The notes under the pieces: generated by a model
Told to the model about the DNA's origin: nothing
What the model saw: only the letters and a program-made list of their open reading frames with translations
Databases searched by the model: none
Position numbers and translations under genes: made by a program
Source of the DNA: a phage
DNA: 64,000 bases
Strand: one strand, 5' to 3'
Sequence record: PZ452594.1
Shown here: one piece after another, positions 9,402-62,848 of the stretch
Layout of the letters: each line of letters opens with the position of its first letter
Position numbering within the stretch: position 1 is the stretch's first letter

Positions 9402-10406
9402 TTAACTTACCAATTCAATCCAAGCCGGACGAAGTACATCTTGTACCATTTTAACTAATTCCTTTTTAATCAAAGAAGGATTATCGGCTTGAGTTAAAGT
9501 AATACCTTCACGAGAAGTTTCTTCCAAAATATCTTGAACAGTTAGCCCCATCACCTTTCCAAAATCCTTTGGACCAATTTCGCCAATTTTAGAAATAACG
9601 TTATTTACCCGGTTCAGTGTAACGTAACAAGCTAAAATTCCCACCAATTTGTTATCAGCTTCTGATAGTTCAACTTTAGCTTTAATAGGCTTATCAGACT
9701 TTTTCTTTTCACTAAATTTGGAATTCTTGCATTTAATCGCTACACGATTGCGATTAGGCAGCCAAGAAGGATAACAAGGTTTCAATACATATCCTTCAGC
9801 GGTAAATACTTCGCCTTTTGCTTCGGCATTCCAAACGCATTTATTTGCATCAACTAATCCAGCATGGTCTACTGTAAAATTATAATCTTGGACAACAGAA
9901 TCTAAATCATTTGGCAATTTAATAAGCTCTTCAAATTTACCGCGACCTAAAAGTGGAGCCATTTTAAATTTAAATGTATTGCAGAATGATTCCATCATAT
10001 AATCGTCGACATAAGTCACATCGCCACTTTCTGTAGTGACAATAATGTCAAATACATAAAAATCTTTATCACCATAATCGACATTCTTCTGAATGCCAGG
10101 TCCAGCGAATTCGCCAAAGACTTGATAAGATACAACCGCTGAGGTTTCCATAATATCTTGTACTGCTTTAATGGAATCAGCGTAATTCTTTAAAATAATT
10201 TCATACCCAAAGAAATCTTCAGCAGGAAGAATCGGTCCAGTACGTTTAGCGCAAGTTACTTTATCACGCTCAATAATCAATGAGAAATTTGTGCCGTGAA
10301 TCTTTTCACGAGCTACCCATTCGCCGCCAGTCAATCCTAAGCTATAAAGTTTTTCAATAAATTTAGAGTTGTAATGATTTTCAAGACTGCTATACTTTTT
10401 AAACAT
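9402..10406 (-). CDS. rnlB: RNA ligase 2 (Rnl2, 334 aa)
   Basis: 334 aa; nucleotidyltransferase motif I KIHGTN near the N-terminus; matches T4 Rnl2 length and N-terminus [16 protein letters not shown]. Confidence 0.94.
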
Positions 10407-10415
10407 AATTAATCC

Positions 10416-10694
10416 TCAAAATGTAATTTCTAACCAATCACCATCACGCTGATCACTATTAACTTTAAAGCTGAATCCTTCTTTTCTCAGCCAATCACCA
10501 ATTTCTTCAGTAATCAATTTATCACGAGCAATACAATAATAATTAAAATGTGTTTTACCTTGTTCAGCTGCTTTATTAGCAAGTTCCGAAAAATCTTTAA
10601 TAAAACACTCTAGCTTAAACTGTTTACTTTTAAGTGCTTTTTCGCGCAATTGATTAGCAAAAGATTCATTTTCATAAAGATCATACTGTTCCAT
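10416..10694 (-). CDS. Hypothetical protein (92 aa; positional equivalent of T4 24.2)
   Basis: ORF with ATG start, tightly packed between rnlB and the next small ORF. Confidence 0.6.
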   Translation of the reverse strand: MEQYDLYENESFANQLREKALKSKQFKLECFIKDFSELANKAAEQGKTHFNYYCIARDKLITEEIGDWLRKEGFSFKVNSDQRDGDWLEITF

Positions 10695-10896
10695 TTTTCA
10701 CCTTTTTATTGATATGTCTTTTTCTATAGACAACTTTTTCTCGAGTTTCAAATTTATTCTTAGCAGTCATAGCTCGAGCCCATAATACAGCCACTTCTTT
10801 TGCCTGTAAGTTTAATTCACGAGCAATTTCAATGAATGGCTTTCCAGACTCATGAAGAGTAAACACCACAACCTCAGTTCTCATAATCAATCTCAT
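10681..10896 (-). CDS. Small HTH protein resembling sigma-70 family region 4 (71 aa; positional equivalent of T4 24.3)
   Basis: Segment VVVFTLHESGKPFIEIARELNLQAKEVAVLWARA follows the pattern of ECF-sigma region 4.2 HTH (F.L...G...EIA.EL.......V...L.RA); basic C-terminal tail. Confidence 0.6.
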   Translation of the reverse strand: MRLIMRTEVVVFTLHESGKPFIEIARELNLQAKEVAVLWARAMTAKNKFETREKVVYRKRHINKKVKNGTV

Positions 10897-10964
10897 GTTA
10901 TCGAGTTGGTGCCATTATATACATCATTTTCTGATTGTGTTTTGTGTGCTTTCAAAATGAAGAA

Positions 10965-10980
10965 AGGGGCCGAAGCCCCT
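10965..10980 (-). terminator. UUCG-tetraloop hairpin 3-prime of hoc
   Basis: aggggc cgaa gcccct (UUCG on minus-strand RNA) 5 nt after hoc stop. Confidence 0.5.
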
Positions 10981-10984
10981 ATGA

Positions 10985-12115
10985 TTATGGATAGGTATAG
11001 ATGATACCAGTTTCTAAAGCAGTTTTATGAATGATGTATCCATTACGCGATTCTTGGACATCAACTTCTGGATAGTCTTTCATCATCTTCTGAAGAGTGT
11101 AACGATGCAAGTAGTACTTACTATCTGGATCGTCAGTTTTCCAATCTTTACCTTCTTCGGTCATTTTTTGGATTTCATCCATAACCCACCAACCGCACCA
11201 GATGTAAGCTGAAGTACGATGTGGAAGAGGATGAACATAAGGTAATTCACCTTCTGGCTCTGGAGCAACTTTATCAGTCACTTGAACTTGACCTTCTGCT
11301 GTAATAGTTTTACTATCATAGTCAGTAGCAGTAACAATTGCAGTAACTTCAATAGTTTGACTTCCAATAGATGAGGTATCAACGGTATATACATTAGTTG
11401 ACCCTTCTACAGGAGAAGAATCTTTCTTCCATGAATACGCAATTTGCGCTTCTTCTGGGGCATCAGTGACATTAGCAGTAAATGTAGCCGAAGCATCTTG
11501 CTGAACGTTAATAGAAGGAGGAGTCAATGTAACCTGTGGATTCATTGTCTTCTTATTAACTGTTAATGATACTTCATTAGAAGTAACTTCTTTTGCATCA
11601 TAATCTGTCGCGGTTACTTGAGCCACACACTTAATTGTTTTAACTCCGCTTGTGGTAGGAGTGTAATTGAATGTAGCAGAAGTTGCTTCGCCTACAGGAG
11701 AACCGTCAACGTGCCATTGATACGTAGCAGATGCACCTGATGGCTGCGAAGCTAAAGCGGCAGTAAATTCAATAGCTGTTCCGATTACTCCAGCGTCAGG
11801 GCTATTAGGAGTTACAGCTAAGGTGGTTGTTTGTGTCTTATTTTGAACTGTGATAGTTGTAGTAGCTTCTGCTGTTTCAGCTTCAGCTTCTGGAACTGTA
11901 TTTGTTGCAACTACTTTAATAGTCTTTTGACCGGCAGGTCCTTTTAGTACATAACTAAAAGTTGCTGACGTTTCTTCCTGTGGAACATCATCTACAGTCC
12001 AAGCATATGTAATAGGTCCATCTCCAGTTTGACCACTGGGTGTAGCAGTAAACTGCTGAGTCTGATCTATAACTCCAGTAGGTGTTTTAGGAGTTATATC
12101 AACTGTAAAAGCCAT
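10985..12115 (-). CDS. hoc: Hoc, highly immunogenic outer capsid protein (376 aa)
   Basis: 376 aa; repeated Ig-like modules (T/S-rich beta-strand repeats) plus C-terminal capsid-binding region; matches T4 Hoc length and position. Confidence 0.93.
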   Translation of the reverse strand: MAFTVDITPKTPTGVIDQTQQFTATPSGQTGDGPITYAWTVDDVPQEETSATFSYVLKGPAGQKTIKVVATNTVPEAEAETAEATTTITVQNKTQTTTLAVTPNSPDAGVIGTAIEFTAALASQPSGASATYQWHVDGSPVGEATSATFNYTPTTSGVKTIKCVAQVTATDYDAKEVTSNEVSLTVNKKTMNPQVTLTPPSINVQQDASATFTANVTDAPEEAQIAYSWKKDSSPVEGSTNVYTVDTSSIGSQTIEVTAIVTATDYDSKTITAEGQVQVTDKVAPEPEGELPYVHPLPHRTSAYIWCGWWVMDEIQKMTEEGKDWKTDDPDSKYYLHRYTLQKMMKDYPEVDVQESRNGYIIHKTALETGIIYTYP

Positions 12116-62575: not shown

Positions 62576-62848
62576 TTATTTGTTCGTATACATCTCTAGA
62601 TATCGATATACACCCTCAAAACCCTCGTTGAATTCGTCGATGAGGGTTTTCTTATCTTCTTGAGTTAATTCAGAAACAATTTTACGGAATGAATTCTGAT
62701 TTAACTTTCTACCTTCATGCGTTACTCCAATCTCATTCAGAAATGCAATAAAATTAGCACGATTCTCAACAATATCTTCTCTGGAAAATTTAATCAAAAT
62801 AGACGCAACAGTAATAATTTCACGAACTGTATCAATGTTTTTATTCAT
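62576..62848 (-). CDS. asiA: AsiA anti-sigma-70 factor (90 aa)
   Basis: 90 aa, N-terminus MNKNIDTVREIITVASILIKFSREDIVENRANFIAFLNEIG. Confidence 0.95.
   Translation of the reverse strand: MNKNIDTVREIITVASILIKFSREDIVENRANFIAFLNEIGVTHEGRKLNQNSFRKIVSELTQEDKKTLIDEFNEGFEGVYRYLEMYTNK

Follow-up and report, generated by a model that had tools for sequence, protein, structure and literature searches.

A predicted minimal helix-turn-helix protein with a conserved basic tail encoded by gene 24.3 of T4-like phages

What kind of protein is encoded by the short open reading frame (ORF) at positions 10681..10896, minus strand, of a 64,000-nucleotide stretch of phage DNA (sequence record PZ452594.1; the whole stretch is referred to below as the window)? 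An earlier sequence-only reading had described the product as a 71-amino acid (aa) protein resembling a free-standing region 4 helix-turn-helix (HTH) of sigma-70, which could act as a decoy or as a small DNA-binding regulator. An ORF of 71 codons holding the exact peptide that it had quoted, VVVFTLHESGKPFIEIARELNLQAKEVAVLWARA, is indeed found there, and the 801 bases around it are 100% identical to Enterobacteria phage RB18 (Tequatrovirus), whose RefSeq record NC_054906 labels the gene "DUF2774 domain-containing protein; gp24.3" and places it between hoc and 24.2/rnlB. On sequence grounds, it is the ortholog of T4 gene 24.3. Phage T4 is the best-studied phage model, and roughly half of its genes, 24.3 among them, are without an assigned function. 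Gene 24.3 and its Pfam family, DUF2774, were already known; the present analysis adds a fold assignment that has been tested, shows that conservation in the family centers on a tail motif, and disfavors a sigma mimic after comparing the features one by one. As modelled, gp24.3 is a minimal three-helix HTH, limited to the helices common to the sigma region 4 (sigma4) and LuxR classes, with a basic, non-helical tail behind it.

The AlphaFold2 model of gp24.3, made from a 24-sequence alignment and with a mean predicted local distance difference test score (pLDDT) of 86.5, gives a three-helix HTH in which the region 4.2 fold is present; the helices comprise residues 3-12, 17-24 and 28-47 (pLDDT 89-95; numbering is from the ATG at 10884), and residues 48-67 are non-helical (pLDDT ~68-70). 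Helix 1 (10849..10878, on the minus strand like the other features of the gene; pLDDT 89-94) corresponds to sigma4 H2 and to helix 1 of GerE, and ends in a conserved H-E-x-G. Helix 2 (10813..10836), the first helix of the HTH, carries the near-invariant F17, I20 and A21 and is aligned by hhalign with the "SYEEIAAIM" segment of sigmaE, and helix 3 (10744..10803) is long and of recognition type, as indicated both by the model and by the hhalign register against sigmaE and sigma70. An independent AlphaFold model of a 39%-identical homolog from an Enterobacter phage, made with 80 sequences, has the same three helices at pLDDT 95-97 and a coil tail at 79-89, along with an extra fourth C-terminal helix after a 14-residue linker that RB18 and T4 do not have.

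For comparison at the level of families, a 124-sequence DUF2774 alignment was used as the hhalign query against Escherichia coli reference alignments of region 4 (RpoD, RpoS, RpoH, RpoE, FliA and FecI) and of LuxR domains (UvrY, SdiA, NarL, RcsB and EvgA). It matched sigma4 with a probability of 75% (P 2.5e-5; 32 columns, in the correct HTH register) and LuxR with 70% (P 3.9e-5; 29 columns), while the positive control of sigma4 against LuxR gave 95%, with P about 2e-8 over 45-46 columns, and the control family alignments (2 reversed and 40 column-shuffled) gave P values of at least 0.05. The description of a free-standing HTH of the sigma region 4 structural class is thus borne out, but the resemblance is not specific to sigma: LuxR/GerE domains are equal by hhalign, come first in Foldseek and score higher in Pfam. 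Pfam GerE (PF00196) scores 16.6 bits against gp24.3 (E 0.006; below its cut-off of 23.5) and is matched by 5 of 24 family members, at best with E 0.0029; Sigma70_r4_2 (PF08281) scores 12 bits (E 0.16; below its cut-off of 25.7), with 5 of the 24 at E<=1 and a best value of 0.023. Sigma70_r4 (PF04545) is matched by a single one of the 24 members, and HTH_7, HTH_38 and HTH_40 match weakly in a few.

Foldseek gave no match of the model to the PDB at E<=0.001. Its list there holds RcsB, NarL, EvgA, DosR, TraR and GerE together with SigH, SigW and SigF, at a root-mean-square deviation (rmsd) of 1.1-1.5 Å over 40-46 columns, with the top ranks taken by LuxR/GerE-type domains (RcsB, NarL, GerE). Against viral models, DUF2774 members came first, followed by assorted small phage HTH proteins, among them one labeled "ECF sigma factor" and another, of 74 aa, labeled "sigma-70 region 4 domain-containing protein". 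Searched against PDB sequences, the DUF2774 profile found an IS21 transposase HTH (E 0.04), an RpoE chain (0.05) and VirB (0.11), and the single gp24.3 sequence found one designed repeat protein and nothing else; the E. coli sigma4 and LuxR profiles had no match among the ORFs of the window. Since the hhalign scores for sigma4 and LuxR are alike and those of the controls weak, gp24.3 belongs to the sigma4/LuxR HTH superfamily, without being assignable to either the sigma or the LuxR branch.

Can such a protein be a mimic of sigma region 4? On that explanation the HTH imitates region 4 and titrates or adapts AsiA, the beta-flap of RNA polymerase, Rsd or an activator, with the tail doing the docking, and expression of 24.3 from a MotA/AsiA-dependent promoter makes for feedback on sigma appropriation. 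The variable surface of the recognition helix, combined with an invariant tail, does suit protein binding, the promoter is MotA-dependent in T4, and the window itself contains, at 62576..62848 (minus strand), a 90-aa gene that we take, from a peptide motif of T4 AsiA, to be asiA, encoding the anti-sigma70 protein and co-activator. The fit to region 4 itself is poor. The -35-contact residues of sigma70 are R584, E585, R588 and Q589; in the hhalign register, which places L10 at sigma70 I565 and M39 at L595, these are replaced by A28, K29, A32 and V33; small residues occupy positions 28 and 32, and no position of the family varies more than 33. Nothing in gp24.3, which begins two residues before the helix that matches sigma4 H2, corresponds to H1, the opening helix of region 4.1, and H5 (sigma70 604-613, acidic/hydrophobic) likewise has no counterpart, a basic coil with a net charge of about +7 standing in its place. 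In sigma region 4, it is H1, H2 and H5 that contact the beta-flap, H5 that forms the MotA site, and both 4.1 and 4.2 that AsiA touches (PMC2988021); gp24.3 therefore has just one of the three flap elements and no part of the MotA site. Nor does it look more like sigma70 than like LuxR regulators or transposase HTHs, and its knock-down leaves fitness unchanged (PMC11879866). Taken as a 67-aa single-domain product, and not the C-terminal domain of a protein bearing region 2, gp24.3 is not a sigma fragment; it is probably not a sigma-region-4 decoy either, and we regard the mimic explanation in general as unlikely. One variant of it, which we consider quite improbable, is that gp24.3 is a stripped-down sigma4-like adapter whose VVYRKR tail docks on RNA polymerase, AsiA or another sigma4 ligand and feeds back on sigma appropriation; were this true, it would be a third small T4 protein acting at the sigma region 4 interface.

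The tail, rather than the HTH, is the most conserved part of the protein. In 64 DUF2774 sequences filtered at 80% identity, conservation is highest over residues 48-57 (10714..10743), which form the non-helical, strongly basic motif (R/K)EKVVYRKR(L), with V52, Y53, R54, K55 and R56 at 4.0-4.2 bits. The core and turns of the HTH (E12, G14, F17, I20, A21 and A41) come second, and conservation is weakest at 33, 34, 37 and 40, which lie on the exposed side of helix 3; conserved basic residues are found at 42, 44, 46 and 48, toward the C-terminal half of that helix. Net charge averages +7.6 in the tail, compared with +1.7 in the HTH part. The codons of the motif vary at synonymous sites among 15 distinct sequences, so that selection acts on the protein.

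With an HTH of a DNA-binding class and a basic, invariant Tyr/Arg/Lys tail, nucleic-acid binding is the simplest reading, and our tentative proposal, which we hold to be somewhat short of an even chance, is that gp24.3 is a small prereplicative regulator or DNA-associated factor that binds nucleic acid, probably DNA. In such a mechanism the HTH would sit on the duplex, and the tail, through contacts with the backbone or the minor groove, would supply most of the binding strength; the minor groove is the face of T4 DNA that is free of glucosyl-hydroxymethylcytosine. Several points weigh against this proposal. The putative base-reading positions of helix 3 are small (A28, A32) or highly variable (33, 37), and acidic in some members, and a recognition surface this variable makes a conserved, sequence-specific operator less likely. 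No conserved operator-like repeat was found upstream of the DUF2774 genes, where the promoter regions vary among genera. As for the invariant tail, it might just as well be the sign of a conserved partner that is protein or RNA, and AsiA provides an example of a protein that contains an HTH and for which no interaction with DNA was detected (PMC2988021).

How long is the protein? The ORF does have the 71 codons given in the sequence-only reading, but its product is most likely one of 67 aa, read from the ATG at 10884 (coding sequence 10681..10884, stop included), as judged from the starts of the homologs and a conserved ribosome-binding site. All homologs start at the second ATG (M5 of the longer form), with MRTEVV, MKKEVL, MDKIKV and so on; the T4 ortholog is annotated from the ATG matching 10884; and all genera examined have a tGAG(g) 6-8 nt ahead of the corresponding ATG. 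The first ATG of RB18 (10896) falls within this Shine-Dalgarno-like element (tGAGa, 10895-10891), and the four additional codons (MRLI, 10885..10896) are probably an untranslated 5' extension. RefSeq NC_054906 uses instead a GTG at 10866, giving 61 aa; that start would delete most of helix 1. In the T4 reference sequence AF158101 (locus L002, 2416-2586), gp24.3 is only 56 aa long. That sequence lacks exactly 33 bp between two CTCGAG (XhoI) sites that are present in RB18 (window 10745-10783, minus strand), while re-sequenced T4 (OZ035787) encodes the full 67-aa protein at 98.5% identity. The loss of this tiny XhoI fragment is probably a historical sequencing artefact of the T4 reference, and the UniProt entry "Uncharacterized 6.6 kDa protein" would therefore be short of 11 residues of helix 3.

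The 71-aa ORF scores 105.7 bits with Pfam DUF2774 (PF11242; gathering cut-off 29.2 bits), covering profile positions 1-63 of 63, and the 67-aa form 105.9 bits over residues 1-64; PHROG 1566 (function unknown) matches with E 3.6e-32. By tblastn, gp24.3 is found in 1093 phage records, at identities down to about 36%, from phages of Escherichia, Klebsiella, Enterobacter, Serratia, Proteus and Aeromonas. Searching 5.8 billion proteins with a family profile gave 131 members of 55-170 aa, each with DUF2774 as its sole domain; those that bear a source name are from T4-like phages, and the long contigs among their sources measure about 160-175 kb. We conclude that gp24.3 is a 67-residue accessory protein confined to T4-like (Straboviridae) phages. 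That 24.3 is a real gene, and not a chance ORF, follows from the DUF2774 score, the 1093 tblastn records, the synonymous codon variation and the detection of both RNA and protein in T4. No second DUF2774 copy was found among the ORFs of the window, and an Rfam scan of 10300-11100 found no RNA family. Literature searches on DUF2774 and gp24.3 turned up nothing specific; in Hinton's review (PMC2988021), 24.3 is absent from the text and present in Table 1.

The names given to homologs in the databases vary. One phage record already has "HTH DNA binding protein". The label "anti-TA protein alt3" on the homolog of Klebsiella phage Roth77 (L005, 3477-3704) was rejected: T4 Alt.-3 belongs to DUF5498, and hhalign gives a probability of 0.3% between that family and DUF2774. 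The name "DNA primase-helicase subunit", carried by some homologs (for example protein P0053 and BFVD Q0MUT0), was treated as an annotation error, the proteins being DUF2774 proteins of 63-75 aa. A few longer relatives were also seen. The "24.3" of Enterobacter phage CC31 (L003, 3498-4079) has 193 aa, consisting of a DUF2774 N-terminus and ~125 residues with no Pfam match; a 24.3-24.2 (Rosetta-stone) fusion was considered and rejected, as a separate 24.2 lies downstream and BLASTP finds no similarity, and the extension may be a frameshift fusion with a neighboring ORF or a genuine extra domain. A 167-aa protein of Klebsiella phage vB_Kpn_AM_K4 (P0034, on a 288-kb contig) contains two near-identical DUF2774 copies in tandem; this is probably an artefact of assembly or of a concatemer and not a true duplication. 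Two metagenome proteins, P0010 (465 aa) and P0030 (283 aa), contain 4-8 tandem HTH units of ~50 residues (EAIRLVREGKNFSEVAREINTSPENVRNWIRAEEQRTGQKI) that resemble the HTH of DUF2774, with E 1.7e-7 summed over the repeats.

When is the gene expressed? Just upstream of its promoter, an intrinsic terminator hairpin (GGGGCUUCGGCCCC plus a U-run; 10965..10980, minus strand) ends the late hoc transcript. P24.3 is among the identified MotA-dependent middle promoters of T4, with its start site at 110108 (PMC2988021, Table 1). From terminator to start codon the T4 and RB18 sequences are identical, and this start therefore corresponds to window position 10907, seven bases downstream of a perfect TATAAT -10 hexamer at 10919-10914 (promoter feature 10907..10919, minus strand). 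The -30 region of RB18 (AACACAATCA) departs from the MotA-box consensus TGCTTtA, and inspection by eye upstream of RB18 24.3 found neither a late promoter nor a canonical MotA box. The type of promoter before the DUF2774 gene varies by genus: a consensus MotA box (TTGCTTT) followed by a -10 element is present in Karamvirus CC31 and in loci L018 and L032, L005 has a partial box, and L020, L023 and L036 have an early-type GTTTACA-17-TAnnAT promoter (TAAGAT/TACTAT). In T4, then, 24.3 is the first gene after the hoc terminator, transcribed from the MotA-dependent P24.3 ahead of 24.2 and rnlB. Time-resolved omics of T4 put all three genes in the class "early RNA / middle protein" (PMC9697503 supplement), and the gp24.3 protein has thus been detected in T4; it is made before replication. 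In the genome-wide dCas13d knock-down of T4 (CRISPRi-ART), 24.3 was "Not Fit" (score -0.52, p 0.86), as were 24.2 and rnlB (PMC11879866 supplement), and the gene is dispensable under laboratory conditions.

The genes that follow are 24.2 (10416..10694, minus strand; 92 aa), which begins 14 nt before 24.3 ends, and rnlB, encoding RNA ligase 2 (Rnl2; 9402..10406, minus strand), the last gene of the 24.3-24.2-rnlB unit. The sole family assignment of gp24.2 is PHROG 2416 (function unknown), and the family has a conserved C-terminal motif (…EGF…QRDGDW.EI.F). Using a degenerate DNA pattern for EKVVYRKR, 21 viral contigs were collected and compared together with the annotated loci (the L numbers used here). 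In 19 of 22 loci, from several genera, the genes run inh-hoc-[DUF2774]-(24.2)-rnlB and gene 24 lies on the other strand. This order, the shared expression class of the three T4 genes (PMC9697503) and the strongly basic, aromatic-containing tail are all in keeping with the idea that gp24.3 is an RNA-binding accessory of the RNA ligase 2 unit, its tail binding tRNA or a nicked duplex and the protein working with gp24.2 and Rnl2. We consider it improbable: T4-like genomes are broadly collinear, which makes gene order weak evidence of shared function, the fold of gp24.3 matches DNA-binding domains, and rnlB has an internal middle promoter of its own, PrnlB, at T4 109763 (PMC2988021), which maps to roughly window position 10529, within gene 24.2. 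Moreover, Aeromonas phage 31.2 and L025 have a DUF2774 gene and no rnlB between it and gene 24. In Aeromonas phage 31.2 (L004, 3829-4353), what comes after the DUF2774 gene, in place of 24.2/rnlB, carries the annotation Srd, "postulated decoy of host sigma70 or sigmaS", a curious neighbor in view of the sequence-only reading.

The 14-nt overlap raises another possibility, that of an HTH antitoxin-like partner of gp24.2, since a small HTH gene overlapping a larger downstream gene is the layout of type II toxin-antitoxin systems. Gene 24.2 does have a very weak match to NYN, a PIN-like RNase domain (E 0.17), but the match falls well short of the threshold, and an NYN domain would not fit within 24.2. 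Neither 24.3 nor 24.2 has a match in PADLOC or NCBIfam, the knock-down of 24.3 is neutral (PMC11879866), and 24.2, present downstream of 24.3 in ~14 of the 22 loci, is not beside the DUF2774 gene in L020, L023, L028 and L034-L036. A toxin-antitoxin pair was rejected on this pattern of co-occurrence, and we hold an antitoxin-like role to be highly improbable. Gene 24.3 is an independent module, which argues against both an obligate pair with 24.2 and an obligate accessory of Rnl2.

The result for the family is that DUF2774 gains a fold, a minimal HTH of the sigma4/LuxR class, with the invariant basic tail as its likely business end, and that a "hypothetical protein" becomes a testable candidate for a DNA-binding or transcription-associated factor of the prereplicative period. 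In practical terms little is gained, as 24.3 is dispensable in laboratory infections, and the reading as a sigma-region-4 decoy is left without the structural elements required for it.

Among known systems, region 4 of the sigma70 family (FliA sigma28, 1rp3; sigmaE on -35 DNA, 2h27; SigW domain 4, 6jhe) shares the region 4.2 HTH fold with gp24.3. The latter, however, stands outside any sigma factor, lacks the first 4.1 helix, the H5 tail and the -35-contact residues, is alone in having the basic VVYRKR tail, and scores below the Pfam threshold (12 vs 25.7 bits). The sigma-like domain of PhyR (3t0y), a sigma-factor mimic, has sigma2-like and sigma4-like parts and a receiver, whereas gp24.3 has three helices only; YlxM/p13 (UPF0122, 1xsv) is bacterial, linked to the signal recognition particle (SRP) operon, about 106 aa long and without sequence relationship to gp24.3. 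AsiA, gp33 and Srd/Srh are, like gp24.3, small proteins of T4-type phages, and are tied to sigma; gp33, for example, takes the place of sigma4 on the beta-flap. They have experimentally studied functions or partners, and no homology between them and gp24.3 was found. The HTH domains of the LuxR/FixJ/GerE type (GerE, 1fse; NarL; RcsB) resemble gp24.3 by Foldseek with an rmsd of 1.2-1.5 Å over 40-46 columns, at 22-32% identity. They differ from it in that a fourth (dimerization) helix, absent from the RB18/T4 protein, packs directly after the recognition helix, and in that they lack its tail motif, and the GerE score of gp24.3 is below threshold. Nevertheless, GerE itself, a stand-alone protein of 74 aa, shows that such a domain can work as a free-standing small protein, as gp24.3 is.
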